NCBI RefSeq assembly: GCF_001465295.1 | Contig: NZ_CP011034.1 | Coordinates: 1,740,001-1,772,000, forward strand | DNA from: Pseudoalteromonas translucida KMM 520 | GTDB lineage: Bacteria > Pseudomonadota > Gammaproteobacteria > Enterobacterales > Alteromonadaceae | Length of the DNA stretch: 32,000 nt | Direction: 5' to 3' | In this document: piece by piece, positions 6,764-25,274 of the stretch | How positions within the stretch are numbered: position 1 is the first letter of the stretch | Layout: each line of letters opens with the position of its first letter | Translations under genes and position numbers: made by a program | Notes under the pieces: model-generated | Databases searched by the model: none | The model's input: only the letters and a program-made list of their open reading frames with translations | Told to the model about the DNA's origin: nothing

Positions 6764-7064
6764 ATCGATGTCCTTACGAATTTATTAGAATTAAACCTAT
6801 ACTACATAGCTTGTTCTGAGTTAGCCAAGTGCATTTGCTGTTGAAGTTAGTGATATTTCGGAAATAGGTGGTCACATTTTCATCGTTGTAGATAGTCGCA
6901 CAGATATACCTGAGTTAGTTACTACTCCTGACCAATTTATAGAGACAGAAGTAGTTTTGTTATAAAAATGTCGAAATTTTTAACATACTTTTCCTAATCT
7001 GATAGCAACGTTTTAGAGCAATAGATCTAACTCGCTTTTGTTCAAAAAGAGTTTGTCCGACCGC

Positions 7065-7110
7065 CAGCTTATCGCTCTTTGCCTAAGTACGCCGAGTGCC
7101 ATGAGCAGAC
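7065..7110 (-). repeat. Inverted orphan copy of the box-plus-junction module found in the cassette array
   Basis: The reverse complement reads GTCTGCTCATGGCAC-tcggcgtacttaggcaaa-GAGCGATAAGCTG. Compare 24878-25003 (GTCCGCTCATGGCAC...ggcgtacttcggcaaaGAGCGATAACCGG) and 23617-23663. Confidence 0.65.
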
Positions 7111-7163
7111 AGCCAGGAGCTATAATGTCTGGACTCAAAATTTGACCCCCAATGGCTCACAAC

Positions 7164-8959: not shown

Positions 8960-9036
8960 TGTAGTAGTACAGTGATTTTGGCCACCCATTAAGAAAGAAA
9001 TGTTATGCTAATAAGCATACAAATTTGGGTGAAAAA

Positions 9037-10217
<1,181 letters not shown>

Positions 10218-11022: not shown

Positions 11023-11757
11023 TTATAGACTTATACTCTCACAGCGGCTTTTAACTACATCATTTTGATTCTTTTGTAGCTTGGAAATCTTCTCAGCTCT
11101 AGTGCACTCCCAAGCATCAACAGGATACATTTTATCCCACGCATTCATTAGTTGGCGTTGCGCTTTACTCATATTGTATCGTTTATAAGTGTTCTCCATA
11201 TACAAATAAGTACGCGCAATTTGCCCTCTAGCCACTTCAGGTGGCTCAGCTTTTCTGTCGTCGATTTTCATCGCGCAACGTCCAAAATCGCTTTGAGCCG
11301 CTGGAAGCATGGTAAAGTTATGATTACTTCTCAGCGCATTCACGGCACCAATGGCCGGATAGAGGTTAAACATATCAGCTTGCATAAAACGGTATTCTGT
11401 ATTTACTTTTTCGGCACATCGTCGACCTTTAAATGACTTCCCCTTACTATTCACACATTGCTTGTCCCCATCTCGCCATTCGCTAAAAGTACGACCAAAG
11501 TTTTCTGCTGGAACAACGTGCTCCCATTCAATTTTTTTAGATCGTTTGACGTACTTTGTTGTAGAAAAGCCCTCCGGCGCGGTTACTTTTTTACTAGCGT
11601 CAAATGTCGCACCACAATAAAGTGTAATGCGGTGATTGTTATAAACCTGCTTTTCTAGAAGTCGTTTAGCTTTGCTAAATGAGTCGATTTCTTGATTTCC
11701 TGAAGAGGCAGCAGAGAAAGTAAGTGTTGCTAACAGTGTAATTGTGGATGCTTTCAT
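11023..11757 (-). CDS. endA: Periplasmic/extracellular endonuclease I (EndA/Dns/Vvn family)
   Basis: Signal peptide, then IEWEHVVPAENFG, MQADMFNLYPAIGAVNALRSN, CAMKIDDRKAEPPEVARGQIARTYLYM and MNAWDKMYPVDAWEC, collinear with E. coli EndA. Confidence 0.9.
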   Translation of the reverse strand: MKASTITLLATLTFSAASSGNQEIDSFSKAKRLLEKQVYNNHRITLYCGATFDASKKVTAPEGFSTTKYVKRSKKIEWEHVVPAENFGRTFSEWRDGDKQCVNSKGKSFKGRRCAEKVNTEYRFMQADMFNLYPAIGAVNALRSNHNFTMLPAAQSDFGRCAMKIDDRKAEPPEVARGQIARTYLYMENTYKRYNMSKAQRQLMNAWDKMYPVDAWECTRAEKISKLQKNQNDVVKSRCESISL

Positions 11758-11892
11758 TATGATTCTTGATACCTATTTCGGTTAAATATGCGACATACTA
11801 TAACTGAGTTAATAAGCTAATTCTCATTTGTGGCGACTAACAATTTTAATTGTAGAACTAAGATATTGTGCTTATAAAGTTTAATCGGAAAG

Positions 11893-12402
11893 TTACTTCC
11901 CAGTCCATGTATTGTCATTTTGATACTGCCCAGAGCAAGCGCTGTTATATGCAAATTGGCCCGTAGACTTATCTCGACAGCACCAGACTAAGTTGTAGTT
12001 GCTATCATAAAACTGGTCCCATGCATAACCAGAAGAATAGTTATTTGACACGCCAGCTCCTGCCGCAGCAACAGCTAAAACGACGACACCTACCGCAACA
12101 ACAGCAGCAACAACGCCTTGAGCGATTTCTTTTCTGTCTTGTGCAGCTAATATCTCACATTTGTATTGAGTGAGTGTTCTATATTTAACTTCTCTGTTAA
12201 GCGCGTAGATATAGTTCGCTTCATCAGTATTTTCGGCTGTATAACTTTTAGCGAGGATATCTTTATCATTAAGGTAGTTTCGACACACTTGGGCATCTGT
12301 TAATTCAGAGTCACCGGCAATGATGGCGTGTCTAGAGGCTGAACAGCCAGTAATAACGCTAAGTATTAGAAAAGATGCAATAGTGTTTTTAACTACAGTC
12401 AT
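11893..12402 (-). CDS. Hypothetical lipoprotein with a hydrophobic Ala/Val-rich segment
   Basis: Lipobox LSVITGC near the N-terminus; a later VVAAVVAVGVVVLAVAAAGAG stretch. Confidence 0.55.
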   Translation of the reverse strand: MTVVKNTIASFLILSVITGCSASRHAIIAGDSELTDAQVCRNYLNDKDILAKSYTAENTDEANYIYALNREVKYRTLTQYKCEILAAQDRKEIAQGVVAAVVAVGVVVLAVAAAGAGVSNNYSSGYAWDQFYDSNYNLVWCCRDKSTGQFAYNSACSGQYQNDNTWTGK

Positions 12403-12599
12403 TAGTAAATTATTCCATATTTAAAATAAACTTTGGGTAAGTTCATAATTCCTTCGTCAAATTTTAACAAACGAAGGCAGGTTTTCCTAACTGTTAAAAA
12501 AGGGTTTTTAATGTTTAGGTATGAAGACTGTTTATATCAGCCTTAATAAAAATATCGTCTTCACAAAAAGAATCTTGGCTTAATTGGAATCTTAAATTA

Positions 12600-12619
12600 C
12601 ACTGTACATATAAACAGTG
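12600..12619 (+). promoter_or_regulatory. LexA/SOS box upstream of umuDC
   Basis: tACTGTACATATAAACAGTg has the CTG-N10-CAG spacing of the gammaproteobacterial SOS box. It lies about 13 nt before the umuD ATG. Confidence 0.8.
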
Positions 12620-12631
12620 CTTGAGGTGTGT

Positions 12632-13048
12632 ATGTTCGTTATTCCAATTTTTATAGAAGCAGGTATCACCGGCTTTGAATCTCCTGCTGCAGAATATGTA
12701 GAGCTAGGTATTTCAATCGATGAACTAATCATTAAACACCCGAATGCCACTTTTATTGGTATAGCTTCTGGGCAATCCATGCAAGAAGTAGGAATATTCG
12801 ATGGTGACTTATTAGTCATTGATAGAGCTGAGGATGTAAGTACCGGCGATGTCATTGTTGCAAGCTATAACGGTTCGTTTGTTTGTAAAATCATAGATAA
12901 ATCGCAACGCTTACTTATCTCTGCCTCTAAAGATTATAAGTCTGTTTATATCTCTAATGATGATGACTTTAAGCTCGAAGGTGTCGTTACTGCGAGCATC
13001 CGCCTACACAGAAATAAAGCTGAAGTGAATCGATGTTTGCCCTCGTAG
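12632..13048 (+). CDS. umuD: UmuD, SOS translesion polymerase V accessory subunit (S24 LexA-like peptidase)
   Basis: GFESPAAEYVE...FIGIASGQSMQEVGIFDGDLLVIDRAEDVSTGDVIVASYNGSFVCK is collinear with E. coli UmuD. ATG 12632 with a GAGG RBS is preferred over the track GTG 12617, which lies inside the SOS box. Confidence 0.9.
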   Translation: MFVIPIFIEAGITGFESPAAEYVELGISIDELIIKHPNATFIGIASGQSMQEVGIFDGDLLVIDRAEDVSTGDVIVASYNGSFVCKIIDKSQRLLISASKDYKSVYISNDDDFKLEGVVTASIRLHRNKAEVNRCLPS

Positions 13049-14292
13049 ATGCAGTTGCATTTTATGCCAGTGCGGAGAAGGTGTTTGACCCATCCATTCG
13101 CTTTAAACCCGTTGTTGTTCTAACAAATAACGATGGGTGTATTTGTGCAATATGCCCTATTGCTAGAAAGCTTAATATCCCGAAATTTGAACCTTACTTC
13201 AAAATTAGACCCTATTTAGAGCAGCATAATGTCGTCGTGCGCTCTTCAAATTATGAACTCTATGCTGATTTGAGTGAGAGAATGATGACGGTCATTAATC
13301 GTTTTTGTGATGACCATTATGTTTATAGTATTGATGAGTCATTTTTACGTTTTACTGGTTTTTCTAAAATCATCAATGACTGGGCTGATTACGGACACAC
13401 AATACGGCGAGCGGTATGGCGCGAAACAGGATTGCCTGTTGGTGTAGGCTTTGGCATTACGCCTACGTTAGCTAAAGCTGCCAACCATGCGGCAAAAAAA
13501 CTCTCTGGTTATAACGGAGTTGCTGTTATTAATGATGATATATCACGCCAAGAAATCCTGACGCGTATGGATGTTACCGATGTCTGGGGTATTGGCTCTC
13601 GACTCGGTAGAAAACTTAAGATCATGGGGATTAAAAGTGCATGGGATTTAGCAAACCAGAACCCTAAAGCAATGCGACACATGTTTAGCGTTGTTGTTGA
13701 GAGGACCGTAAGTGAGCTTAACGGCATCGCCTGTTTAAGTTGGGATGAAGTAAAACAGAATAAAAAAGAAATCTACTCAACGAGAAGTTTCGGGGAAAGA
13801 GTAAGTGATTTAAATACATTAAAATCAGCCCTCGTAACACACGCAGCGATTGTTGGCCGCAAGCTAAGAAAACAACAGTCATTAGCAAAACGACTTGTTA
13901 TATTCGCTGCAAGCTCGCCACACGAAGACGCGTATTATAAGAAATCTTTGCTCTATGATTTTCCTATACCTACATCAGATACCAGTGTTATAGCCAATGC
14001 TGTTTCAGATGTTATTGATGATATTTTTAAGGCTAACACGCGCTTTTATCGCTGCGGTATTGGCGCAATAGAGTTAGAAAGTGAGTTATTTCAACAAGCC
14101 GATATGTTCTCTGTAAGTGAGGATAAACCTAAAATGATGGAATGCTTAGATGTAATAAATAAACGCTATGGTGTAGGAACTTTATCTATAGGTAGTGAAA
14201 AGCTAACAAAATCATGGAACATGAAAAGGGCTTTTTTATCGCCCCACTACACAACCCGCTGGTCAGACATTCCTATCATAGATTGTGATTGA
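13033..14292 (+). CDS. umuC: UmuC, Y-family DNA polymerase V catalytic subunit
   Basis: MFALVDAVAFYASAEKVFDPSIRFKPVVVLTNNDGCICA...YSIDESFL is the canonical UmuC N-terminus. It overlaps umuD by 16 nt. Confidence 0.92.
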   Translation: MFALVDAVAFYASAEKVFDPSIRFKPVVVLTNNDGCICAICPIARKLNIPKFEPYFKIRPYLEQHNVVVRSSNYELYADLSERMMTVINRFCDDHYVYSIDESFLRFTGFSKIINDWADYGHTIRRAVWRETGLPVGVGFGITPTLAKAANHAAKKLSGYNGVAVINDDISRQEILTRMDVTDVWGIGSRLGRKLKIMGIKSAWDLANQNPKAMRHMFSVVVERTVSELNGIACLSWDEVKQNKKEIYSTRSFGERVSDLNTLKSALVTHAAIVGRKLRKQQSLAKRLVIFAASSPHEDAYYKKSLLYDFPIPTSDTSVIANAVSDVIDDIFKANTRFYRCGIGAIELESELFQQADMFSVSEDKPKMMECLDVINKRYGVGTLSIGSEKLTKSWNMKRAFLSPHYTTRWSDIPIIDCD

Positions 14293-14907: not shown

Positions 14908-15801
14908 ATGGAAGATCTAAGAAGAACATGTTTCTTTTGTGCCGAGAGAATTGAAGAAAAGAAAACTCTAGAGCATATTATTCCTAATAGCCTTTTAGGA
15001 AAGCTAAGTATTAAAGAAAAAACAATAACAGGGCAAAAAGAAACTCAATATAGTCGAGTAAAAGTACCTGCCCATTCTACTTGTAATAGTGGATTTGGAA
15101 GTGACTTTGAAAACAGAGCGCTTGAGCTACTTGAGGATCCTGATTTGTTGTATGAAAGTATAACGAATGAAGAGGGTGGCATAGCAATGATGTATGGCCC
15201 TGACGAATCAGATACCGCAATAATTACTACATGGTTATCAAAGATTTATTATGGCTTGTTTTACTATGATCTCATTTCCACACAAGATGATGATTGGAGA
15301 AATATTTGTTCGAGCGTGATAGCTAATGATAATTTTGAATACGTGCGCCGTTCATACAAAAATGGTCATGGATTCCAATTACCTTCAAGCTTATATGTAT
15401 TTAAAACAAATAATTTAGATACCGACCTAACTACTTTCATTGAGCCTAGCAGTATAATGTTAAAGGTAGGGGCAATAACATTAATACTTTGTATCAGTGA
15501 TGGTTACTTAACTAAGAATTATCTGAACGGTGATACGCTAGAGCGGTTAAGGAAAAATATTCAAACTGAAGATGAAACGAATATAAATTTTCCATCGCAT
15601 AAAATGGCTTTTGCGGAAATATTGGCACTTCGTAGTTGTATTCCCAAAACCCCTAAGTTCGTCACTAGTGATAATCAAGTAATTAACATGAGTTTATCTA
15701 CAATGGTTTCCAATCCAGACAAGTACTACCAAATAAATGATGATAGGTATAAGGAAGCTAGAATTGAGATACTTGGTAAGTTTGGTATAAAGTTAGGTTA
15801 A
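14908..15801 (+). CDS. Cassette ORF: HNH-family nuclease-like protein (297 aa)
   Basis: CFFCAERIEEKKTLEHIIPNSLLGK...VPAHSTCNSGFG gives the CxxC...EH...N...H..CN arrangement of the HNH motif. Confidence 0.7.
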   Translation: MEDLRRTCFFCAERIEEKKTLEHIIPNSLLGKLSIKEKTITGQKETQYSRVKVPAHSTCNSGFGSDFENRALELLEDPDLLYESITNEEGGIAMMYGPDESDTAIITTWLSKIYYGLFYYDLISTQDDDWRNICSSVIANDNFEYVRRSYKNGHGFQLPSSLYVFKTNNLDTDLTTFIEPSSIMLKVGAITLILCISDGYLTKNYLNGDTLERLRKNIQTEDETNINFPSHKMAFAEILALRSCIPKTPKFVTSDNQVINMSLSTMVSNPDKYYQINDDRYKEARIEILGKFGIKLG

Positions 15802-15808
15802 ATAAACA

Positions 15809-15907
15809 CATAGCAAGGCGTTTAAACGGAACAAAAACAGTGGGTTACGTTTCTCTTCGCTACACATTATAACCCACAATTTTTGTCCGCTTAACGCGGC
15901 GTTAGTT
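15809..15907 (+). repeat. attC-like site (family A)
   Basis: Inverted arms GGAACAAAAACAGTGGGTTA / TAACCCACAATTTTTGTCC. It ends in GTTAGTT and is near-identical in layout to 22770-22867. Confidence 0.6.
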
Positions 15908-15944
15908 TTCTCATCAACATCATCATTTATCAACAAGGATAGAA

Positions 15945-16184
15945 ATGGATACTTTCATTGAATTTGTAAAATCAGACATTGGGGTCACGCTGGCTTGGCT
16001 ATGTACTGTAGGAAGTACATTGTTTGCGGTGATTGCATCAAAGAAAAATAAACAGTTGAAAATAAAAATTGGCGAAATAACAAAGAATTCAACAGTAGAT
16101 AATAGTAAGGATAGTGTTATGCAAAACGGCCAGAAGAATGTATATACAAAGACCAACTCTGGCGGCATGAAAATTGATATGTAA
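15945..16184 (+). CDS. Small single-pass membrane protein (79 aa), first gene of the four-gene cassette
   Basis: AAGGA RBS 6 nt before the ATG. TM helix IGVTLAWLCTVGSTLFAVIAS followed by an Asn/Lys-rich tail. Confidence 0.55.
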   Translation: MDTFIEFVKSDIGVTLAWLCTVGSTLFAVIASKKNKQLKIKIGEITKNSTVDNSKDSVMQNGQKNVYTKTNSGGMKIDM

Positions 16185-16195
16185 GGACTAAACTC

Positions 16196-16780
16196 TTGAC
16201 CATAGGAAATGAAGGGGGTAAACCCCCAGCAAATAAAACAGTTCACGTTGAACGTAATGCTGGAAATATCATAATCGGGGATTCACCCGAATATGAGATC
16301 AGCTCGGCTATAAATGAATTGCTAAAGTCATTAGCTAACAAGCCGTTTACGTTTAAGAAAAGCAGAAGACGCCCATCCTCTGAAACAGTTGTGAAGATTA
16401 AATACAATAGTCTTAAAGCTAAAAGTCATATCATAAAGCAATACTTAGATCATTCCTCAAAAGTAGAAGAAGCCTATTCCGAGATAGACTCATTGATAAC
16501 TTTTGGAAAAGATACAATCCTGCAAAATTTAAACGATTTATACTATCTTGCTTTAGACGCTGTTGAAATCGACTATCTAACTTGCGATATAGACATAGCT
16601 AAAATCAGAGAAAATTCAGAGTTCATTTTGGATTTTATTATTCAAAGATTAAAAAACACCGTATTTGAATCAAAAAACACTCCAGCTTACAAAGAGCATG
16701 TTGAATTGGGCGTGAATGTCGTCGTCGCTCATGCTTTTATTGAGTGCATAATTATGGAAAACCCAACTTATGATTCCTAG
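16196..16780 (+). CDS. Putative ABC-three-component (ABC-3C) effector-component protein (C-terminal helical module only, 194 aa)
   Basis: TTG start 8 nt after AAGGA. An operon with the small middle gene and the ABC ATPase, with overlapping stop/start codons. The assignment rests on gene order and size, not on a recognised motif. Confidence 0.5.
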   Translation: MTIGNEGGKPPANKTVHVERNAGNIIIGDSPEYEISSAINELLKSLANKPFTFKKSRRRPSSETVVKIKYNSLKAKSHIIKQYLDHSSKVEEAYSEIDSLITFGKDTILQNLNDLYYLALDAVEIDYLTCDIDIAKIRENSEFILDFIIQRLKNTVFESKNTPAYKEHVELGVNVVVAHAFIECIIMENPTYDS

Positions 16781-16994
16781 AAATGGTTGTGACCCAGAAA
16801 TAAATATTGTAAGTATCGGAGCAAAAATTCTAAAGCAAGTGGCAGAGGAAAATCCGTCCTTGGATGCGATACTCACTGACTGTTCTTCAGATCTAAAAGT
16901 ATCGATTGACCACATTATATTGTCATTAGATTGGTTGTTTGCAATTAAGGCTATTGGGATTAATGGAACAGAGGTTTTTATAAATGAAGCTTGA
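16770..16994 (+). CDS. Putative ABC-3C middle component (74 aa)
   Basis: It overlaps the upstream gene by 11 nt and the downstream ATPase gene by 11 nt. Size and position match the middle component of ABC-3C systems. Confidence 0.55.
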   Translation: MIPRNGCDPEINIVSIGAKILKQVAEENPSLDAILTDCSSDLKVSIDHIILSLDWLFAIKAIGINGTEVFINEA

Positions 16995-18675
16995 TAACCT
17001 TGAAATAAAGATAAATAGCGAAGTAAAAAGATTGGTTAAATTCGAGACAGGCCTTAACCTCATCACAAACAAGCCAAATTCTGGGCGTACAGGAAACAGC
17101 GTCGGAAAATCAACATTATCAAGAGTGGTTGATTTTCTAATGCTAGGAAGCATAGACAATATTTACATCGATGAAGAGTTCAAAAAGCCAAACCTTGAGA
17201 TAGAAGCGCTTTTTAAGAACAACTTTGTAACTGCTTCTCTCAGTTTCTTTGACTTCTCAAACAAAATAAATCAAATTTCTCGAAATCTATGTGTTGGTGG
17301 AGAATCTGAATCTAAATTCTGGGTAAATGGTGAAATTGTTGAAGAAAAGGGATATGAGTCATTTATTCAGGATAAAATCTTTAATATATCTACTAGAAGG
17401 CCTTCTGTTCGAGCTGTAGCGCCTAAATTCATTAGAAATGACAGTCATAGAATGTTGAGTACGACCAAGTTTCTTGATAAACGACAAGGCCCAAAAGATT
17501 ACAGCGAACTTTTTTTATACCTTTTCGGCTTCAACAATACGTCTTTACTTACAGAGAAAAGAGATGCAACGAATCTGGTTAATAGACGAAAAAGAAATTC
17601 CACTTCAATCAATGCTCTAGTGAAAGAGCAAAAGCCAACAAGTGAGATCAAGAAATATAAGGCAGATGCTAAAGAGCTAGAGAACAACCTTTTAACATTC
17701 GAATACTCGTCAGAATATTCTAATCCAATAGAAAGGCTTTCAGAACTACAAGTAAAAGAAGACAGATATACCGAAGAGCTTCTATCAATACAGCGAAAAG
17801 TAGACAATATCAATCATACTATCGAACTATTATCCAAAGACAAAGATGGTTATTTAATCAACGAGCTTAAAGCTATATATAGTTTTTCTGGTGTAGCAAT
17901 TGATGGAGCCTTAAGAGAACTTGAAGACGTTATTTTGTTCCATAGAAATCTCGTTGAAAAAAAGAGGCGCTTTCTTACGATTGACTTGCCTAAATTGGAT
18001 GAGGAATCTGAAGGTCTTCAAGCAGAGCTCAGTTCAATACGGAAAGATAAGTTACAAGTTTTTTCTGATATGAGGTCTAAGGAAAGCTTAGACAATGTGA
18101 CTAAAAATCTGAAACGTCTTGGTGAGCTTAAAGTTGAACTTGGAAAGTTAGAAGGTCTAATGGAGCAGCAGTCCAAGGCAAAATTAGATCAAACTGAAGC
18201 TGAAGCTCAATTGCAGAAAATCCTTGAGGCTATTTCCAAAGAGATTGACTATGTTTATGAGTTTGAGAAAAAATTCAATACACATTTAGGATCTCTTACT
18301 AAAAGTCTTCACGATGAAGAATACAGCATAGACTTAGAATTCAATAAGGATAGTGGTACTTGTTCTATAGAGCTCAATAACTCAGCAACTAATCCTGAGG
18401 GTGGGAAGAAGAAAGCCGAAGTCATTGCTTTTGATTTTGCATATATACATGCCATTAATGAGTTAAAGCTGAATCGACCAAATTTTATATTTCATGACAG
18501 TATTGAGGATATTGACCAAAAACAGATTGAAGATATTTTCAAAGAGGCAAAGAAACTCCCGGGTCAACAGATTTTGTCAATGCTATCAGATAAAATATCA
18601 GAAGAAACTTACAAGGAGATATCCAAAAATGTAATCTTATCTCTTGATGAGGATGAAAAGTTCTTTTGTGTTTAA
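16984..18675 (+). CDS. ABC-type ATPase with coiled-coil insert (DUF2326 / ABC-3C ATPase-like, 563 aa)
   Basis: N-terminal strand plus P-loop (LNLITNKPNSGRTGNSVGKSTL). About 250 aa of heptad-rich coiled coil. Signature-like NPEGGKKKAEVIAFDFAY, then Walker B/D-loop RPNFIFHDSIEDID. Confidence 0.78.
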   Translation: MKLDNLEIKINSEVKRLVKFETGLNLITNKPNSGRTGNSVGKSTLSRVVDFLMLGSIDNIYIDEEFKKPNLEIEALFKNNFVTASLSFFDFSNKINQISRNLCVGGESESKFWVNGEIVEEKGYESFIQDKIFNISTRRPSVRAVAPKFIRNDSHRMLSTTKFLDKRQGPKDYSELFLYLFGFNNTSLLTEKRDATNLVNRRKRNSTSINALVKEQKPTSEIKKYKADAKELENNLLTFEYSSEYSNPIERLSELQVKEDRYTEELLSIQRKVDNINHTIELLSKDKDGYLINELKAIYSFSGVAIDGALRELEDVILFHRNLVEKKRRFLTIDLPKLDEESEGLQAELSSIRKDKLQVFSDMRSKESLDNVTKNLKRLGELKVELGKLEGLMEQQSKAKLDQTEAEAQLQKILEAISKEIDYVYEFEKKFNTHLGSLTKSLHDEEYSIDLEFNKDSGTCSIELNNSATNPEGGKKKAEVIAFDFAYIHAINELKLNRPNFIFHDSIEDIDQKQIEDIFKEAKKLPGQQILSMLSDKISEETYKEISKNVILSLDEDEKFFCV

Positions 18676-18683
18676 ACAAAAAA

Positions 18684-18741
18684 CTAACAAGTCAAATCAC
18701 TCGGACGCAGCGAAGCTGCGCCGGTGTTTGAGGCGTTATGT
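18684..18741 (+). repeat. attC-like site (short, 58 bp)
   Basis: CTAACAAGT-CAAAtCACtCGGaCGCAGC-gaa-GCTGCGCCGGTGTTTG-aggcGTTATGT is a clean stem with three unpaired bases confined to the left arm, with TAAC and GTTRRRY ends. Confidence 0.72.
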
Positions 18742-18764
18742 GTTTCAGGAGTATGGTGTTTTCA

Positions 18765-19091
18765 ATGGATAATGATGACGTAAAAATTGTAGAAGCAAAA
18801 ATGGAGTTAGAACGCATTTCTGAGCTTCAAAAGTATAAAGAAGAATTTGATAAGCTTGGTTCAAATGACTGGGGGCTTAAAGACTTTCTTTCTATTATTG
18901 CGCCATTTGGCTTACTTCTACTTGCAAATAGTTTCTTTACAATCGAGAGTGAGTTATTTCAAATAATGTGCGTTATTTTCGTTGCCTCATCTTTTGTTCA
19001 AGGCATGGTTACCGCTGAAAGTAAAAAGACAAACCGCAGAATTGATATACTGCTCAAAATCATCAAACAAGGACAGAGTAAAAACACATAA
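18765..19091 (+). CDS. Cassette ORF: small two-TM membrane protein
   Basis: Track ORF 18738..19091. The ATG at 18738 lies inside the attC core, so a later in-frame ATG (18753 or 18765) is more likely. Hydrophobic helices FLSIIAPFGLLLLANSFFTI and LFQIMCVIFVASSFVQGMV. Confidence 0.5.
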   Translation: MDNDDVKIVEAKMELERISELQKYKEEFDKLGSNDWGLKDFLSIIAPFGLLLLANSFFTIESELFQIMCVIFVASSFVQGMVTAESKKTNRRIDILLKIIKQGQSKNT

Positions 19092-19183
19092 CAACACGCC
19101 CTGAGGTGGACAGCAAGCACTAAAGCTCACTTTCCACCGCAAGTTTAGCCAACAGTCAATTGCCCCTTAGCAAAGCGTTAGGC
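19087..19183 (+). repeat. attC-like site
   Basis: It starts CATAACA (overlapping the stop codon), has the internal stem GGTGGA...TCCACC, and ends in GCGTTAGGC. Confidence 0.5.
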
Positions 19184-19211
19184 ATATCAAGGTAGAGGGA
19201 TTTATCGTTCA

Positions 19212-20903
19212 ATGAGTCAAAAAAAATCAACGCCATCACTTCCAGATCCATTTCCAACGGATAAACTTCGTTTACTTCAGTTCGGAAGTGCTGATGGTCA
19301 TAGAGATAAAGTTGCAGAGCATGCGTTTATAGAAACTTCATCTGTAAAACAATTTTATTTGAATCAACATTCAATAATTGTAGGAGCAATAGGAGCTGGC
19401 AAAAGTACTCTATTTGCCCTATTGAAGAATCATTCAGAAAAATTAGAATCATATAAAGATGATTTGATCGTACCTTTAGAAGAGGCTTTGTCATTTAATG
19501 AACTTGCTGATTTTGTTAAAAATCATTATCCAGATAAAGATGAAAAAACACTTTATCAATTATTATGGAAGTTCAGTATATTATTAAAAATCGCAATTGA
19601 ATTATCAAAGCATGAAGGCTTTCCAAATAACGATTATGAGAAGGCAGTTAACAATTTCTTAGATGATTCAAATAGTTCAGATGCTTATTCAAATATCCTT
19701 AATAAATTTAAAAAACTTATTTCTAATGCAAATGTAAAATTTGAAGCTAAGGTTGGTGACAACCCTATAGCTATAGAAGCAGGGTTGTCTGATAAAGAAC
19801 CAAAGCCCCAAAAGAAAATTAACCTTGAAGAAGTTCAAAGAGCTATATCCGACTCAATAAAAGTTCGTAATTTCAATTGTGCGACTGTGATTATTGATAA
19901 AATAGACAAGTTTATGGCTGGTGCTGAATATAATGTCCAAAGACAGTATATAGGTGCATTACTTGAAGTTGATGATGATCTATCGGCTATTCAAAACATT
20001 AATTTAAAAGTTTTTATAAGAGCAGACCTATTTGAAAGATTAGATTTCGCAGCTCTTGGTTATGACAAAGTCCATGATAACGTAATTAGATTAAAATGGA
20101 GCCACGATGAAACTCTACGTTTTTTAGCAACAAGGATAATGGTTGGATTAATACGAGCGAAGATATGTAGACCAGAAGAGATATTTCAGTCTACAGACTT
20201 AACTGAGTTTGATTTGACTTGGAGAGAAAAGTTATTTCTAAATCCTAGTGTGCCAAATATTGTTAAAAACCTGATTAATAAAAAAGAAAAATCTGAACGC
20301 GTTACAAGTATGTATGGGAAATTTGATAAAGCGATAATCACTAAAGTTTTTCCTCGTTGTGCTATTCACTTCTGCTCAAAAGAAAACAAGCAGTCAGAAT
20401 TAGATATTTTTGATTTTATAAAATCTCATTTTTTAGATGGTAACGGAATATGTACTCCAAGGTATATGTTAATTTTCCTAAAAGAAGTTGTTGAACAAGT
20501 CGCCTCATATTATGACGAAAACCCTGATCAAGTTTCAGAGCTAGTTTTAGTGGAAAAAGATTTTGAGTGGGATTTATTTAAAAAATATTGTGTGTATCAA
20601 GCTTATGTTACAGCGAAAGATATATATATAAAGAACATTGAAACTATAGACTCTACATGGACTAAAAATGTAAATGTCCTTTTGGCAAAAAGAGGTAACA
20701 AAACAAAGTTTGATTATAAATGGATTAGAGCCAACATTCCTGATATTTCAGAAAGTGAAGCAGTAGATTTCTTGTCATTTCTTCAAGTTATTGGTTTTTT
20801 GAAAATTTCAGATGCACATCAAGATATAAAAAAGAGAGGTTATGAGCTACCTATTCTATACAAGCTTTCGAATATGCCTAACAAGCCAATTAAGCGGGAC
20901 TAA
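19212..20903 (+). CDS. Cassette ORF: 563-aa P-loop NTPase of unrecognised family
   Basis: Perfect Walker A GAIGAGKST (IIVGAIGAGKSTLFALL). Walker-B-like ATVIIDKIDKF. A long helical C-terminal half. Confidence 0.75.
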   Translation: MSQKKSTPSLPDPFPTDKLRLLQFGSADGHRDKVAEHAFIETSSVKQFYLNQHSIIVGAIGAGKSTLFALLKNHSEKLESYKDDLIVPLEEALSFNELADFVKNHYPDKDEKTLYQLLWKFSILLKIAIELSKHEGFPNNDYEKAVNNFLDDSNSSDAYSNILNKFKKLISNANVKFEAKVGDNPIAIEAGLSDKEPKPQKKINLEEVQRAISDSIKVRNFNCATVIIDKIDKFMAGAEYNVQRQYIGALLEVDDDLSAIQNINLKVFIRADLFERLDFAALGYDKVHDNVIRLKWSHDETLRFLATRIMVGLIRAKICRPEEIFQSTDLTEFDLTWREKLFLNPSVPNIVKNLINKKEKSERVTSMYGKFDKAIITKVFPRCAIHFCSKENKQSELDIFDFIKSHFLDGNGICTPRYMLIFLKEVVEQVASYYDENPDQVSELVLVEKDFEWDLFKKYCVYQAYVTAKDIYIKNIETIDSTWTKNVNVLLAKRGNKTKFDYKWIRANIPDISESEAVDFLSFLQVIGFLKISDAHQDIKKRGYELPILYKLSNMPNKPIKRD

Positions 20904-20975
20904 AAACAGTTTGCTCGGTTTCGCTTCGCTACACATTTTAGCAAACAATTTTTAGCCCACTATTGGGGCGTTACC
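20877..20975 (+). repeat. attC-like site (family B)
   Basis: CCTAACAAGCC...GGGACTAAAAACAGTTTGCT / AGCAAACAATTTTTAGCCC...GGGGCGTTACC. The left core lies inside the 3' end of the ORF. Confidence 0.6.
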
Positions 20976-20978
20976 ACC

Positions 20979-21947
20979 GTCCGCTCATGGCACGTGTCAG
21001 ACTCTAACTTCGAGTCTGGCTTAGGTTCAAATTTAAGCATCGATCTGTTCTGATACTTCTAACGCATCATCAACTTCTATTCCCAAGTACCTGACTGTGC
21101 TCTCCAGTTTTCTATGGCCAAGTAGAAGCTGACAGGCTCTTAAATTTTTAGTTTTTTTGTAAATTAGTGATGGTTTGGTACGTCTCATAGAATGAGTGCC
21201 ATATTGAGTCTTATCTAACCCAATTGAGGTGACCCAAGAATCAACTATACGTCCATATTGACGGGTTGAAAGGTGTTCAGAGGAATGAATTCGTGACTTA
21301 AACAAGTAATCATAAGAATTGAGAGTAAATTGCTCTATGAGCGCCACAATTGATTTCCTTGTATTTCCAGTAATTTCAAATTGAACAGGCATACCAGTCT
21401 TTTTTTGAACGACTATTGCCCTTGATTGGATTGTTTTACCATGTGCGATGTCATTAACTTTTAGTGAAACTAAATCACACCCTCTTAGTTTGCTATCTAT
21501 GGCTAGGTTAAATAGTGCTAGATCTCTTATTTTATGAAAAAGTTCTAGTCGTATTCGGATAGCCCATATTTGCTGTAATTTTAGAGGTAACTTTTGTCCT
21601 ACAAGCTTATTTTTATTCCAAGGCTCTTTAGGCTGATATATAGTTAACTGGTGCATTAGTTGTACTCCGGTGTTTATGGAGTTTTAAGCTTAGCTCGCTA
21701 CAAAAGAATTCGGGTATGAGCGATAACCAGTCATTGGGGTTCGTTAAATATCGTCGTTAACTGATTGGTCAAACTGTCATTTTCGTTTATATTCATGAAA
21801 ATGAGCGCCGAGCGCATATTGTTCTATTTAACTTTTCTTTAAAGTTTTAGAAAACTTCGTGATAGTAATACCTTAGGTTATTTGTTAAAACTATATAATG
21901 TAGAAAAATGAGCGTAGCGTCGGCAGAAACATGCGCGATGAGCGCAC
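20979..21947 (+). mobile_element. 969-bp element bounded by about 15-bp imperfect inverted repeats and carrying a short tyrosine recombinase; proposed autonomous copy of the R-element family
   Basis: Left end GTCCGCTCATGGCAC (20979-20993). Right end GCGCGATGAGCGCAC (21933-21947), whose reverse complement GTGCGCTCATCGCGC matches 12/15. The interior is the recombinase gene plus the conserved R body (21709-21947). Confidence 0.55.
21033..21656 (-). CDS. Stand-alone catalytic-domain tyrosine recombinase (207 aa, FimB/FimE-sized); not a canonical integron integrase
   Basis: RDLALFNLAIDSKLRGCDLVSL (Arg I), YGTHSMRRTKPSLIY (H-x-x-R), LLGHRKLESTVRYLGIE (His/Tyr nucleophile). It is too short to contain an N-terminal core-binding domain or the IntI-specific insertion. 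Confidence 0.85.
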   Translation of the reverse strand: MHQLTIYQPKEPWNKNKLVGQKLPLKLQQIWAIRIRLELFHKIRDLALFNLAIDSKLRGCDLVSLKVNDIAHGKTIQSRAIVVQKKTGMPVQFEITGNTRKSIVALIEQFTLNSYDYLFKSRIHSSEHLSTRQYGRIVDSWVTSIGLDKTQYGTHSMRRTKPSLIYKKTKNLRACQLLLGHRKLESTVRYLGIEVDDALEVSEQIDA

Positions 21948-22007
21948 TATTAAATTGTTATGCCTTTTTAGTCATCTGCAAGGCTCAATATATAAATAAG
22001 GATATCA

Positions 22008-22775
22008 ATGAATTTTTTACAGTTCGACTTAGGAAACCTCAAACGGGGTGAGATTGTTGAGGTAACACTAACAAGTGGTGCCAATGTAAGATTAATGACT
22101 AGTTCAGAGTTTAATAATTACAAAAACGGAAGAAAGCATAGGTTTATTGGCGGACTAGCTAAAAGATCACCTGTAAACCTTCAAGTAACAAGTTCAGGTC
22201 GATGGTACGTTGCTGTAGATATGCAAGGACTTCGAGGTTCAACAAAAGCATCCGTGAGAACACTTCCAGGAATGTTACCTGAAATACAAGAACGACCATT
22301 ATCAGAAGTGCCTAGCCTAGTTAGGGATAATGTTCCTCCTCCTCTTGAGTCTGGTGGTGAAACTCACGATGTATTCATATCTCATGCATCCGAAGATAAA
22401 GATGATTTAGTTCGCCCTTTGGCAAACGCTTTAATTGCCAAAGGTCTAAATGTTTGGTTTGATGAAATGACACTTAGAATTGGTGATAGTCTAAGACAAA
22501 AAATTGATAAAGGGCTAGCTAATAGCCGTGTAGGTTTAGTGGTTTTATCTCCATCCTTTATTAAAAAAGGTTGGACTAACTACGAACTCGATGGAATTGT
22601 CACAAGAACAGTATCAGGCGAACAGGTTCTTCTGCCTATTTGGCACGATATCACCAAACAACAAGTTGTTGATTTTAGTCCTTCTTTAGCTGACAAAGTC
22701 GCTCGTAGTACAGCAACTCATACAATAGATGAGATCGCTCAGGAGATATATGATCTTCTTGAGTCTAAGGCATAA
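22008..22775 (+). CDS. Cassette ORF: DUF1883-TIR domain protein
   Basis: N-terminal MNFLQFDLGNLKRGEIVEVTLTSGANVRLMTSSEFNNYKNGRKHRFIGGLAK is the DUF1883 pattern. C-terminal DVFISHASEDKDDLVRPLANALIAKGLNVWFDE...VVLSPSFIKKGWTNYELDG is a TIR domain with the conserved Glu. Confidence 0.85.
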   Translation: MNFLQFDLGNLKRGEIVEVTLTSGANVRLMTSSEFNNYKNGRKHRFIGGLAKRSPVNLQVTSSGRWYVAVDMQGLRGSTKASVRTLPGMLPEIQERPLSEVPSLVRDNVPPPLESGGETHDVFISHASEDKDDLVRPLANALIAKGLNVWFDEMTLRIGDSLRQKIDKGLANSRVGLVVLSPSFIKKGWTNYELDGIVTRTVSGEQVLLPIWHDITKQQVVDFSPSLADKVARSTATHTIDEIAQEIYDLLESKA

Positions 22776-22867
22776 CAGGTACTTAAACGCAACTAATACA
22801 GTGGGTTAGGTTTAGCTACACTACACATTATAACCCACAATTTTAGTCCGCTTAGTGCGTCGTTACC
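22770..22867 (+). repeat. attC-like site (family A)
   Basis: GCATAACAGG...ACAGTGGGTTAGG / ATAACCCACAATTTTAGTCC...GTCGTTACC. Confidence 0.6.
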
Positions 22868-22870
22868 ACT

Positions 22871-23134
22871 GTCTGAAATTGGCACTGAGCCGAATTTCGG
22901 CATAGAGCGATAACCAGTCATTGAGATTGGCTAAATATCGTAGTTAATTGATTGGTCAAACTGCTCTTTGCTCATATATTCATAGAAATGAGCAACGTGC
23001 GTATATTATTGCATTTAACTTTACTTAAAAGTTTTAGAAAACTTAATGATAGTAATACCTTAGGTTATTTGCTAAAACTATATAATACGAAAAAATGAGC
23101 GTGGCGTCGGCAGAAATATGCACGATGAGCGCAC
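22871..23134 (+). mobile_element. R element copy 2 (264 bp, no recombinase; left inverted repeat degenerate)
   Basis: Collinear by eye with 21709-21947 and 24983-25221. It abuts the GTTACC of the attC on the left and is followed by tattaaattGTTAGGC on the right. Confidence 0.6.
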
Positions 23135-23163
23135 TATTAAATTGTTAGGCTTCAGGGGTATCA

Positions 23164-23601
23164 ATGTTAGATAGTAAATTGGTTTCATTACATAAGCATT
23201 GGATTACTGCCGATGCCATAAAACAAGTTGTTAGCGCGCCAGTTGATGAGGAAACAGGTTTACCTGAAGAGCTTCAAGAACTTGCAAAATACCATTCAAT
23301 GTTTCAAAGATTAACAGTGTTATATTCTCTTCTCTACATTGTAGTTGAAGGCTATCGAGAATTGAAATATGAAAATAAAATTATAGATGATTTGTTAGCA
23401 AATGAGGATTTCGTAGATGCTTTACGACTATTTAGAAATGCAATATTTCATTACCAGAAACAACCAATTCCTGAGAAAGCGATGAAATTTTTAGAGCTCA
23501 CGGAAAGCGAATTATGGATACGTAAATTGCATAGCTCTTTTGGGGCATTCTTTGAGAAAGAGTTACCAATAGGTGAAACTCTCAATCAGCTTAAAGCCTA
23601 A
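23164..23601 (+). CDS. Cassette ORF: small helical protein with a HEPN-like RNxxxH motif (145 aa)
   Basis: LRLFRNAIFHYQ is an Rx4H motif in a predicted all-helical protein. Confidence 0.55.
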   Translation: MLDSKLVSLHKHWITADAIKQVVSAPVDEETGLPEELQELAKYHSMFQRLTVLYSLLYIVVEGYRELKYENKIIDDLLANEDFVDALRLFRNAIFHYQKQPIPEKAMKFLELTESELWIRKLHSSFGAFFEKELPIGETLNQLKA

Positions 23602-23672
23602 CAAGGCATTACCAATGTTCGCTCATGGCACTTAGCTGATCTTCGTCAAAGAGCGATAAGCTGTCATTCAGG
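23596..23672 (+). repeat. Collapsed attC (18 bp: GCCTAACAAG/GCATTACC), then a solo left box and junction of the R family
   Basis: Box GTTCGCTCATGGCAC (23617-23631), then ttagctgatcttcgtcaaaGAGCGATAAGCTGTCATTCAGG. Similarity to the R body stops after about 25 nt. Confidence 0.55.
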
Positions 23673-23874
23673 TGAGTCGTCATTAACTTAGTAAGAATAA
23701 GAGAGGATTTTCATCTTTTTTACATGTTTATATAAGCTACAGAAAGAATAATATTTATAGCTGGCAATAGCTTACAGTATTTTCTATTAATATAAATTCA
23801 CAAAATAAGGACGTTTTCGCGCTAAAATAGGGAAAGTGTCCTCTGATAAAGTTGTTATATTCAAGGAGTGATCA

Positions 23875-24789
23875 ATGAAGTTCTCAGGTAAGTCGATACG
23901 AACATTAACCAAATTAATCAAGGTAACTGGTGCCGCGACTAAAGTTAGGTTAACTGTCCAACTAAGCAGTATTCCCCAAGAGTTACTCGTTCAACTAGGC
24001 TTTGATAACACTCCTGAACAAGGAGACTTCTTGATACCTTCTTCATTGGGTAAATTCACAAGTTTTAATGTGAATGGTGCTACCAAAATTAGAAAAGATC
24101 TCCCCTTAGAGCCTGAATCAGTGATGTTCTATGGTTCATCAAGAGATTGGCACGGAGGAATTCACTACGGAATTAGGACGAGAACCATTGATAAATACCC
24201 ACGAGAGTATATTTCCGCACCATCTGAAACCTTTGAAATAGTCAAAATTAAGGGAAATTTACATCTTTCTTCTTCGGAGTTAGATTTAAGCGATAAAGAT
24301 GAAACACGAAACATCCATGTTACCAATATGATGCTGGAGTGCTTTTCTGAGTTCGACATTTACGATTTGGAAAAAGAAGAAATAGTTGGACCGAAGCTAA
24401 AGCGATTGCAGTGGGATATATTGCCTCAAGGAGAGTCACCTTGGATTAAAGCAAAGCCAATTATCCTCAATAGAACTGAGCACCTTCCGGAGAAAGATAA
24501 AAAAGTAATTGAACATAGAATGAAGGTAATTTCTCGAAGAGAGCCTGATTTTTTAGCCACAGGAAGAGCCGGTTTTAGCGGGTATTTTGTTTACGGCTTC
24601 AAAGACAAAGACGTATACGTTTTAGAAAGTATGGAACTTGATAATGCAACATACGTTTTCAATAGTGACTGGGAAGCGATATCAAAATTAACCAAAAGCC
24701 AAATTATCAATAGCGAATTACCGCATCAACGAATTATCCACAATAAAAAATGGAATGTATCGCTAGGCCGCGCGATATCTGGAAATTAA
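23875..24789 (+). CDS. Cassette ORF: hypothetical 304-aa protein, no family recognised
   Basis: Track ORF with AAGGAG RBS 7 nt upstream (ttcAAGGAGtgatcaATG). Confidence 0.6.
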   Translation: MKFSGKSIRTLTKLIKVTGAATKVRLTVQLSSIPQELLVQLGFDNTPEQGDFLIPSSLGKFTSFNVNGATKIRKDLPLEPESVMFYGSSRDWHGGIHYGIRTRTIDKYPREYISAPSETFEIVKIKGNLHLSSSELDLSDKDETRNIHVTNMMLECFSEFDIYDLEKEEIVGPKLKRLQWDILPQGESPWIKAKPIILNRTEHLPEKDKKVIEHRMKVISRREPDFLATGRAGFSGYFVYGFKDKDVYVLESMELDNATYVFNSDWEAISKLTKSQIINSELPHQRIIHNKKWNVSLGRAISGN

Positions 24790-24790
24790 A

Positions 24791-24874
24791 TATAACAAGC
24801 AATCAAGAAGGACTAAAAACAGCTTGCTCGGTTCCGCTTTGCTTCACATTTTAGCCTCTTATTGAGGCGTTACC
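24791..24874 (+). repeat. attC-like site (family B) with a deletion of about 15 nt in the right arm
   Basis: It aligns with 20877-20975 but lacks the AAACAATTTTTAGCC segment. It ends in GGCGTTACC. Confidence 0.5.
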
Positions 24875-24877
24875 AAT

Positions 24878-25221
24878 GTCCGCTCATGGCACAATTGCTA
24901 AGTTAGGCTGTGAGCGAATTTGAGACATTGACCAAAGTGCAAAAATTGCACATTGGTCACCACCTCTAACTCAGAGGCGTACTTCGGCAAAGAGCGATAA
25001 CCGGTCATTGAGATTAGCTAAATATAATAGTTAATTGATTGGTCAAACTGCTCTTTACTCATATATTCATGAAAATGAGCTGCTCGCGCATATTGATCTA
25101 TTTAACTTTACTCAAAAATTTTAGAAAACTTAGTGATAGTAATACCTTAGGTTATTTGTTAAAACTATATAAAGCAGAAAAATGAGCGTTAAGTCGGCAG
25201 AAATATGCGCGATAAGCGGAC
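24878..25221 (+). mobile_element. R element copy 3 (344 bp, no recombinase, with an extra nested segment of about 83 bp)
   Basis: Left GTCCGCTCATGGCAC (24878-24892). Right GCGCGATAAGCGGAC (25207-25221), whose reverse complement GTCCGCTTATCGCGC matches 12/15. The extra segment, about 24893-24975, contains the hairpin 24929-24959. Confidence 0.6.
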
Positions 25222-25274
25222 TATAAAATGTTAGTTTTATATTTGAGTTATTCAGAATTAAAGGTGTCAACTAG

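Follow-up and report, generated by a model that had tools for sequence, protein, structure and literature searches.

A four-gene integron cassette encoding a candidate Lamassu-like system whose small membrane protein and adaptor share a co-varying Asn/Gly-rich motif

The subject of this report is a group of four adjacent genes on the forward strand of a 32,000-nucleotide stretch of Pseudoalteromonas translucida KMM 520 (contig NZ_CP011034.1, positions 1,740,001 to 1,772,000; hereafter the window, in whose numbering positions are given). They encode a small membrane protein (79 amino acids, aa), a LmuA-like adaptor without an effector domain (194 aa), a middle component (74 aa) and an SMC-like ABC ATPase (563 aa), and all four open reading frames (ORFs) are intact. 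An earlier reading made from the letters alone (the sequence-only reading) had described the same four genes, the last three overlapping by 11 nt each, and both the gene set and its coordinates hold (Table 1); the overlaps read ATGATTCCTAG at the gene 2/gene 3 junction and ATGAAGCTTGA at the gene 3/gene 4 junction, and another 11 nt separate the stop codon of gene 1 from the TTG start of gene 2, the two ORFs lying in different frames. We argue that the four genes rather likely constitute a four-component abortive-infection system of the Lamassu/ABC three-component (ABC-3C) kind, of a CTD10-MC6-DUF2326 subtype, in which a transmembrane (TM) effector is engaged via a paired motif. What is new is the conserved fourth gene together with the co-varying motif pair; as an ABC-3C system on an integron cassette alone, the locus is an ordinary member of its class.

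All four genes are held in a single integron gene cassette of 2,834 bp. We delimit the unit in this way because homology to other genomes breaks at the G↓TT cores, with unrelated flanks: in junction alignments the nucleotide match begins at G↓TTAG (15900/15901) and stops at GGCG↓TTA (18738), with unrelated DNA before the former and after the latter. Copies with these breakpoints occur in differing contexts in at least five genera (Oceanisphaera, Advenella, Marinomonas, Photobacterium and Thalassotalea), and the block as such is found in seven other genomes, namely those of Thalassotalea, Oceanisphaera, Advenella (a betaproteobacterium), Spongiibacter, Marinomonas, Photobacterium and an Oceanospirillaceae metagenome-assembled genome (MAG). 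Both of the flanking attC-like sites that had been proposed from the sequence are real, as judged by these breakpoints and by the imperfect hairpins into which their bottom strands fold (z = -3.9 upstream and -4.25 downstream, with none of 200 shuffled sequences as good), but only the downstream one belongs to the cassette; the upstream one is the attC of the preceding cassette and a member of a repeat family with further copies at 20887, 22779 and 24800. With an attC of its own, G↓TT cores and varied contexts, the unit thus has what defines an integron gene cassette. Copies of the ATPase more than 90% identical are also reported from Vibrio cholerae, V. anguillarum, Salinivibrio, Shewanella, Aeromonas, Halomonas and Endozoicomonas, a wide spread that would be consistent with cassette mobility. 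No copy of the cassette or of the ATPase turned up in the plasmid and phage collections, and the window holds no intI gene. Some near-identical cassette copies carry frameshifts in the ATPase gene (L002 6001-6156, L006 2364-3965 and L008 5933-6001; these copies belong to Oceanisphaera, the Oceanospirillaceae MAG and Photobacterium), which would be consistent with a cost of the active copy or may reflect assembly errors.

The ATPase encoded by gene 4 is 100% identical to PTRA_a1929 of P. translucida KMM 520. The three motifs picked out earlier, a P-loop (GNSVGKST), a signature-like segment (EGGKKKA) and a Walker B segment (FIFHDS), are all present and do not vary across 12 homologues aligned down to 54% identity. 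In the AlphaFold2 model of the protein (pLDDT 82.8), the N- and C-terminal head halves flank predicted, coiled-coil-like helices at about aa 186-443, which is the SMC/Rad50-like organization of an ABC-3C ATPase, where a coiled-coil insert interrupts the series of Walker A, signature and Walker B motifs; a CxxC zinc hook is absent. When this model was compared with the PDB by Foldseek, Bacillus subtilis YydD ranked first (9a6c_A, E 2.6e-21, TM-score 0.61), followed by an SMC head, then by Lamassu LmuB (9hqu_A, 4e-13; 9hqx_B, about 1e-13; 9ux7_A, 3e-10) and then by Rad50, cohesin and condensin heads. Among the best 50 matches the first RecN stood at rank 46 (E 1e-7) and entries of the OLD, Gabija or PARIS type were absent, and the OLD/Gabija/PARIS (AAA_15/21) and RecF/RecN families gave no match to the ATPase in PADLOC, Pfam or NCBIfam. 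The protein therefore does not fall into the RecF/RecN/SbcC or the OLD/Gabija/PARIS clade, either of which the sequence-only reading had named as grounds for giving up the assignment, as it had a failure of the small genes to find ABC-3C homologues, which they do have. At the level of sequence, the PADLOC candidate PDC-M68B matches the ATPase over its full length (4.3e-32), and the protein has no significant Pfam or NCBIfam match of its own; its homologues are named DUF2326/YydD in their sources, many of them with precomputed PF10088 matches, and the ATPases of two sister loci that share the four-gene arrangement (L051 and L053) match the PADLOC LmuB model PDLC03859 over nearly their full length (about 3e-14).

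Searches with the ABC-3C component profiles, suggested earlier as a check, gave scores above the gathering cut-offs for both small proteins downstream of gene 1. Over aa 38-188, the 194-aa protein reaches 30.7 bits (cut-off 28.1) with PF20275, CTD10 ("C-terminal domain 10 of the ABC-3C systems"), while the 74-aa protein reaches 41.3 bits (cut-off 27.2) with PF20293, MC6 ("ABC-3C Middle Component 6"); the MC6 gene keeps its place between the CTD10 and ATPase genes in all loci examined. Together with the SMC/Rad50-like ATPase, these assignments bear out the view that one cassette carries a complete ABC-3C module in the order effector-side protein, middle component, ATPase. Ahead of CTD10, however, the 194-aa protein has about 37 residues and no domain, where an ABC-3C protein has its N-terminally fused effector, such that the system shows three of the four structural features of the class (C-terminal domain or CTD, middle component or MC, and SMC-like ATPase), lacks the fourth and is a variant. 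The close homologues of the 194-aa protein (n = 135) are all 168-217 aa long, and CTD10 homologues carry precomputed PF20275 matches under the NCBI name "ABC-three component system protein". Twelve longer CTD10 relatives, confined to other branches, do have an HNH or a restriction-endonuclease (REase)-like domain ahead of CTD10; an HNH-CTD10 relative matches PADLOC PDC-M68A and a REase-CTD10 relative matches PADLOC LmuA, and the HNH-CTD10 locus L018 is a plain three-gene operon from which the TM ORF is absent. Since these fused relatives keep the rule of "effector domain + CTD", the effector slot would here be occupied by something else.

The beginning of gene 2 deserves mention as well. A perfect GGGGG-TAAA-CCCCC hairpin (GGGGGTAAACCCCC, 16214-16227) lies in its variable N-terminal linker, in codons for GGKPP, and is not kept outside the closest relatives or in other subfamilies. 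Two homopolymer runs directly follow the start codon and could give rise to slippage or phase variation.

The 79-aa product of gene 1 had been called a TM protein, and it indeed has one strongly hydrophobic segment (aa 11-31); it has no match in Pfam, PADLOC or NCBIfam. Because its N-terminus is acidic (MDTFIEF) and the stretch past the helix is basic (SKKNKQLK), an N-out/C-in topology is predicted. We surveyed loci by tblastn and ORF maps (17 from genomes, 28 from metagenomes and 8 look-ups of distant CTD10 representatives), and in every one of the 44 loci whose CTD10 stands alone, L037 included, the TM ORF forms a gene of its own. A stop codon always stands between it and the CTD10 gene, and the relative frame is 0, +1 or +2; the two ORFs overlap in L019, L020, L053 and L058, and in L012, L013 and L015 they share a frame and are parted by the stop codon alone. 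The partner ranges from 47 to 122 aa in the family and is kept at the amino-acid level even where the ATPase is 31-46% identical, its helix conserving the GVxIAWxCTV residues or, in distant members, small-residue-rich faces, and 16 of 26 non-redundant TM proteins have D or E within residues 2-4 (as called).

These observations do not agree with the proposal that the TM ORF is the product of an ancient frameshift, since it is a separate conserved gene with its own stop codon, occurring in all three frames. Nor did the expectation that homologues might have the TM segment fused to the 194-aa protein hold up, for no TM-CTD10 fusion was found among the 135 close homologues or the 149 distant representatives, the latter being the best 149 of 299 matches in a profile search of 1.84 billion representatives (50% identity). 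Apparent TM-like windows near residues 155-175 of CTD10 proteins were dismissed as CTD10's own hydrophobic C-terminal helix, and a conserved frameshift or recoding event between genes 1 and 2 was likewise rejected, given that frames vary (0/+1/+2), the stop is always there and no slippery or readthrough arrangement is conserved. On this comparative evidence we take the TM ORF to be a real fourth gene and no frameshift scar. In two distant branches a helix-turn-helix (Xre-type) regulator gene lies directly upstream of the small TM gene (L049 975-1199 and L051 873-1094), an arrangement that suggests dedicated transcriptional control where the system is off an integron cassette. In L057 (628-900) the 90-aa TM partner has a second, C-terminal hydrophobic helix with the Asn/Gly-rich motif between both helices, so that in that branch the motif is not always C-terminal.

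This motif is what connects genes 1 and 2. Within the subfamily of the window, TM proteins end in QxGxKN(V/I)YTKxNSGGMxIxM, followed by the stop codon, and CTD10 proteins begin with KTVxVxxNAGN(V/I)xIGD; the window's own versions, KNVYTKTNSGGMKIDM and KTVHVERNAGNIIIGD, align in one register, and the subfamily profiles score 11.2 in that register, compared with -10.4 +/- 6.9 when columns are permuted (p = 0.003); just one further shift, +5, gives a positive score (1.0). In distant loci the motif differs strongly from locus to locus while its two halves match closely within a locus, to the point of near-identity in L045, L049, L054 and L055. The co-variation was quantified by scoring the C-terminal 24 aa of the TM proteins against the N-terminal 40 aa of the CTD10 proteins in 26 non-redundant pairs over 20,000 permutations: cognate pairs score 35.8 on average and non-cognate pairs 21.4 (p = 5e-5, the floor for that number of permutations), and the cognate partner ranks first in 10 of 26 rows. 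Three negative controls gave no such signal, in which the TM N-terminus was set against the CTD10 N-terminus (p = 0.73), or the TM tail against CTD10 residues 60-100 (p = 0.85) or against the CTD10 C-terminus (p = 0.84). At the DNA level the two halves are 0.33-0.76 identical, and only 89 of 189 identical residues (47%) use the same codon, which indicates that the similarity is kept by protein-level selection; a recent DNA repeat or gene conversion as its source was rejected on the same ground.

The matched segments, 14-23 aa long, show an excess of N (2.8x), G (4.1x), Q (1.8x) and V (1.3x) and are poor in L (0.18x) and P (0.53x). Dyrka et al. described bacterial amyloid signaling sequence (BASS) motifs of about 25 aa in which Q, N, G, V and I are over-represented and K, P and L under-represented. 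In standalone CTD10 proteins N, G and Q together make up 30.4% of the first 30 aa as against 12.9% from residue 60 onward, and the fused relatives reach 15% in their own first 30 aa. The layout is that of an amyloid-motif pair, the effector-side copy of the motif being C-terminal and the sensor-side copy N-terminal, in adjacent genes that are collinear in all loci. The earlier suggestion that the TM ORF supplies the missing effector thereby receives support, if of an indirect kind, from the paired motif.

Table 1. Positions of the cassette, its genes and motifs, the motif pairs of distant loci, and neighboring genes
Feature	Position	Strand	Remarks
Integron gene cassette	15902-18735	+	83-99.6% identical block in seven other genomes, flanks unrelated
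attC of preceding cassette	15818-15905	+	G↓TT crossover core 15901-15903 = left edge of four-gene cassette
Four-gene cassette's own attC	about 18682-18741	+	R'' CTAAC 18684-18688; R' G↓TTAT 18735-18739
Gene 1, 79-aa small membrane protein	15945-16184	+	ATG start; AAGGA ribosome-binding site 6 nt upstream
Gene 2, 194-aa LmuA-like adaptor without effector domain	16196-16780	+	TTG start; AAGGA 8 nt upstream
Gene 3, 74-aa middle component (MC6, LmuC/DdmB equivalent)	16770-16994	+	ATG start
Gene 4, 563-aa SMC-like ABC ATPase	16984-18675	+	ATG start; DUF2326/YydD type, LmuB-like
Predicted transmembrane helix DIGVTLAWLCTVGSTLFAVIA	aa 11-31; 15975-16037	+	hydropathy 1.95 over 17 aa; conserved GVxIAWxCTV core
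TM-protein C-terminal motif KNVYTKTNSGGMKIDM	aa 64-79; 16134-16181	+	near-invariant within subfamily
CTD10 N-terminal motif KTVHVERNAGNIIIGD	aa 14-29; 16235-16282	+	partner of TM tail motif
Walker A GNSVGKST	aa 37-44; 17092-17115	+	invariant in 12-homologue alignment
Signature-like EGGKKKA	aa 472-478; 18397-18417	+	invariant in 12-homologue alignment
Walker B FIFHDS	aa 501-506; 18484-18501	+	invariant in 12-homologue alignment
L045 motif pair (TM / CTD10)			GKNSQQAMGDITN / GPNSQQAFGDIVN
L049 motif pair (TM / CTD10)			IRGNNNQQAGRDINN / ISGNNNQQAMRDIIN
L054 motif pair (TM / CTD10)			GNNYQSSNDMTVNQ / GSNYSSGGDMTVNQ
L055 motif pair (TM / CTD10)			QNISGNNNNQAGRDI / QSISGNNNNLAGRDV
L058 motif pair (TM / CTD10)			GTNSGVIAGNVSGGVNN / GENLGTIAGCINGDVYN
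297-aa protein, preceding cassette	14908-15801	+	N-terminal HNH-like CxxC...H motif; Pfam HNH_5 22.5 bits, below cut-off
Second 563-aa P-loop protein	19212-20903	+	Sll1717-family ATPase, NCBIfam 118.6 bits vs cut-off 75
DUF1883-TIR protein, single-gene cassette	22008-22775	+	PADLOC PDC-S66 5.9e-69; ThsB-like 2e-39

How might such a system work? ABC-3C systems are known in the literature as type II Lamassu, and the statement in the sequence-only reading that no function had been demonstrated for them is outdated, given that type II Lamassu/DdmABC has been validated against phages and plasmids and solved by cryo-electron microscopy (cryo-EM). In the solved complexes (2025), the C-terminal domain of LmuA is an oligomerization domain that is sequestered by two LmuB protomers plus LmuC; according to work from 2025, Lamassu senses DNA ends or replication intermediates, whereupon the liberated LmuA tetramerizes and its N-terminal nuclease becomes active. 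By analogy with these complexes, a dimer of the window's ATPase together with MC6 would hold the CTD10 protein sequestered and monomeric until the ATPase heads detected a signal of the invader, which in Lamassu consists of DNA ends or phage replication intermediates, and the freed CTD10 protein would then oligomerize. The fused nuclease domain of the canonical relatives would here be replaced by a 16-20-residue, Asn/Gly-rich, strand-forming motif, such that the clustered N-termini of CTD10 could capture the TM protein by its cytoplasmic tails in a homotypic beta-type contact, and maybe through an amyloid-like templating as in Bab/Agp or HET-S/NWD2. The transmembrane helices would thereby assemble, the membrane would be breached and the infected cell would die.

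For the Escherichia coli anti-phage pair Bab/Agp, abortive infection via amyloid signaling has been shown experimentally: Bab is the proposed executioner, abortive infection needs the shared motif, and infection moves Bab to the cell periphery with accompanying membrane alterations. In the amyloid-signaling model, oligomerization of the sensor nucleates the templating fold. An amyloid-type pairing would also fit Lamassu, where the release of the LmuA CTD brings N-termini together. That an SMC-like immune sensor should act on a separate miniature membrane executioner through a shared motif of about 16-20 residues that is templated in prion-like fashion, with the freed and oligomerized CTD10 adaptor nucleating a cross-beta fold by which the TM protein would be recruited and activated, is an idea to which we hold tentatively, and which may well prove wrong.

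The part played by the TM protein could perceivably be a different one. It might serve as a membrane tether only, whose motif holds the Lamassu-like complex to the inner membrane, for instance at sites of phage DNA entry, with toxicity or interference arising from the CTD10 oligomer, from ATPase-mediated DNA binding or from a host factor. This would accord with a protein that is very small and has one helix and no recognizable toxic domain, with the fact that a paired motif shows association and not killing, and with the account by Haudiquet et al. (2025) of a short Lamassu clade, "Clade O", that seemingly lacks the LmuA effector domain and for which no effector is named. Nevertheless, we regard a pure tether as unlikely, in that every fused relative has a bona fide effector (HNH or REase) before the CTD and the motif plus the TM protein fill this slot, in that the conserved GVxIAWxCTV residues or small-residue-rich helix faces exceed what a generic anchor needs, and in that the parallel with Bab is one with a proposed executioner whose motif-dependent action is accompanied by membrane alterations on infection. 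Quite unlikely, to our minds, is also a stable, stoichiometric split protein, in which strand complementation would restore a once-continuous TM-CTD10 effector, with the two genes acting as a single LmuA with a TM effector domain and without templating or switch-like polymerization. The adjacency and probable translational coupling of the two genes (the 11-nt gap, and the overlaps in four loci), the three loci in which a single stop codon separates them in the same frame, and the resemblance of the two motifs to tandem copies of one hairpin unit would all be explained in this way. A simple split does not, however, predict that a motif is shared by both sides or that it co-varies, no fused form occurs in either homologue set, and a constitutive attachment would keep the SMC-like sensor at the membrane at all times, which is possible yet has no precedent in the solved Lamassu complexes.

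Two further explanations would deny the locus an immune function altogether. The cassette could be a decayed system with a frameshifted effector gene that is no longer under selection, as one might suppose from genes 1 and 2 lying in different frames 11 nt apart and from the frameshifted ATPase genes of L002, L006 and L008, which tell us that individual copies do decay. We consider this highly improbable, because the split layout is kept from 100% down to 31% ATPase identity and in all three frames, with ribosome-binding sites and starts present, because the TM and CTD10 proteins are conserved at the amino-acid level in spite of many synonymous changes, and because the four ORFs of the window are intact. 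Hardly more credible is a housekeeping or repair machine of the SMC/RecN/SbcC type; Foldseek does also match SMC, Rad50 and RecN heads, and Lamassu itself has been proposed to derive from SbcCD, but the genes sit on a mobile integron cassette that is patchily distributed across genera at more than 90% identity, are tied to Pfam ABC-3C CTD and MC components, have no Mre11/SbcD-type nuclease partner and are surrounded by defense-type cassettes.

Of all these, an abortive-infection system with a TM effector thus remains the explanation we favor, and several points weigh against it. We infer the defense role of the CTD10/MC6/DUF2326 subtype from homology and context, and what ties the system to Lamassu is the similar fold, the matches of sister sequences and membership in Pfam ABC-3C families rather than a direct profile match of the window's ATPase, which matches neither Pfam DUF2326 nor PADLOC LmuB at E <= 1. 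Searches of PDB sequences with the ATPase (phmmer and profile) returned coiled-coil noise and no LmuB, and those with the CTD10 profile linked no solved LmuA chain and likewise returned coiled-coil noise only. The window's own motif pair is weak (5 of 14 residues identical, p = 0.02 when taken alone), the strong signal coming from distant relatives; K is not depleted in the motif (1.2x), unlike in BASS motifs, and I stands at 0.73x. An AlphaFold2 prediction of the TM and CTD10 proteins joined as a single sequence reached a pLDDT of 33.7, too low for a contact to be read from it, and a protein that has 79 aa and crosses the membrane once might act as an anchor and not as a toxin. Finally, promoter-like sites inside the cassette are not in excess over shuffled sequence, so that expression would depend on context.

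If the TM protein is the effector, the "missing" effector of an apparently effector-less short-Lamassu clade would have been identified, and Lamassu would gain a membrane-targeting output that acts in trans. If the pairing is moreover of the amyloid type, amyloid signaling would extend from sensors of the NOD-like receptor (NLR) and TGP types to Lamassu and to ordinary unicellular Proteobacteria, and the system would be the second in bacterial defense, after Bab/Agp, with evidence of this type and the first built on an SMC-like sensor, a complete switch that moves as one 2.8-kb integron cassette. The cassette also shows integrons carrying whole four-gene, putative immune systems from genus to genus across Gamma- and Betaproteobacteria. 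The co-varying motif pair offers a directly testable link between sensor and effector that can be addressed by mutation. There is also a practical side, in that annotation pipelines and defense finders miss a gene of 47-122 aa, PADLOC seeing the ATPase alone, as PDC-M68B; cloned three-gene versions would for this reason probably look inactive.

The cassette does not stand by itself. The attC-type repeats detected span 15818-24886, similar repeats separate the neighboring units, and defense-like genes abound in this array, among them an HNH-like protein, an Sll1717-family P-loop ATPase and a DUF1883-TIR protein. The 297-aa HNH-like protein of the preceding cassette has no PADLOC match. Directly downstream of the four-gene cassette, a small cassette bounded by the attC at about 18682-18741 and an attC-like region around 19090-19180 carries a 117-aa ORF with hydrophobic segments (18738-19091, +) and no family match; in the next cassette but one, the Sll1717-family protein partially matches the PADLOC candidate PDC-M28C, and its gene is probably another single-gene defense cassette. 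On the opposite strand within the array lies a 207-aa tyrosine recombinase (21033-21656, -) consisting of the catalytic domain only (Pfam Phage_integrase, 8e-15), with weak XerA/XerC-like NCBIfam matches far below cut-off, which is too short for a normal IntI. A 256-nt direct repeat occurs three times between cassettes (21700-21955, 22887-23142 and 24974-25229; 82-86% identical), each time just downstream of an attC-like site and much longer than attC; these repeats might be a cassette 5' leader, a small non-coding element or a promoter module.

Farther away, a protein with a HEPN/Toprim N-terminal domain (PF18871, 8.6e-26) is encoded about 7.6 kb upstream, outside the attC-bounded stretch, and adjoins a 1,086-aa protein without family match (region 3503-8351, -, and 9025-10217, +); the two may form a two-gene defense module. 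An IS3-type transposase pair (rve) comes next, and then Endonuclease I and umuDC-like genes (11023-14292). At 28302-28436 there is a tandem array of about 11 copies of the 9-nt unit TAAACAGAT in an AT-rich stretch (28.5% GC).

Among known systems, the closest in architecture are type II Lamassu and DdmABC, Lamassu being present in about 15% of prokaryotic genomes. DdmABC of V. cholerae, which defends against plasmids and phages, combines an SMC-like ATPase with a CTD7 effector protein and with MC3 as its middle component, and the cassette shares with these systems the gene order, a CTD protein, a small middle component and an SMC-like coiled-coil ABC ATPase of the same fold class as LmuB, the CTD and MC being drawn from Pfam ABC-3C families in both cases (CTD10 and MC6 in the cassette, CTD7 and MC3 in DdmAB). 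The ATPase would also pass for a "short" Lamassu, with 563 aa, a Walker B segment of the form hhhhD-S that agrees with the consensus hhhhD[Q/S/T/E] given by Haudiquet et al. (2025), and no zinc hook. Unlike type II Lamassu, however, the cassette encodes a CTD protein without a fused effector domain and a small TM protein as its fourth gene, and its ATPase belongs to a DUF2326/YydD clade of which the PADLOC LmuB models detect sister sequences only. We found no experimental work on the CTD10/MC6/DUF2326 subtype and no relevant DUF2326/YydD papers in the literature searched, nor any there that joins amyloid signaling with Lamassu or with ABC ATPases, and Krishnan et al. (NAR 2020) may already note a TM partner or the N-terminal motif.

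With Bab/Agp, Bell/NLR and the fungal HET-S/NWD2 the system has in common that the motifs co-vary by pair, in what would here too be a setting of abortive infection. It differs from BASS pairs in that the sensor side is an ABC-3C/Lamassu adaptor and not an NLR or a TPR-GreA/B-PIN protein, in that the proposed effector (47-122 aa) is shorter and has no detectable Bell or HeLo domain, sharing with BASS effectors only the N-terminal hydrophobic helix that these carry, and in that its hosts are mostly unicellular Proteobacteria. On these likenesses, the system may act in the manner of a BASS pair, yet it cannot be filed as a Bell protein.

YydB-YydC-YydD of B. subtilis includes, in YydD, both the best structural match of the ATPase and the founder of DUF2326. 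YydB presumably carries an enzymatic (phosphoesterase-type) effector fused to its CTD, and we know of no separate TM gene in that operon. To Clade O, as described, the four-gene system is alike in having an effector-less LmuA with intact LmuC and LmuB in many species, and it may belong to that clade; the text of Haudiquet et al. contains neither "transmembrane" nor "membrane" and mentions no upstream TM gene or paired motif. A further relative is the PADLOC candidate PDC-M68 (HNH-CTD10 + DUF2326 ATPase), which is probably the "HNH" short Lamassu of Haudiquet et al. and which, as seen in L018, draws on the same ATPase, CTD10 and MC6 families. There HNH is fused to CTD10 in a set of three genes, whereas here a short motif and a separate TM gene stand in its place and gene 2 does not match PDC-M68A; PDC-M68 is, in short, the fused sister of the system described in this report.

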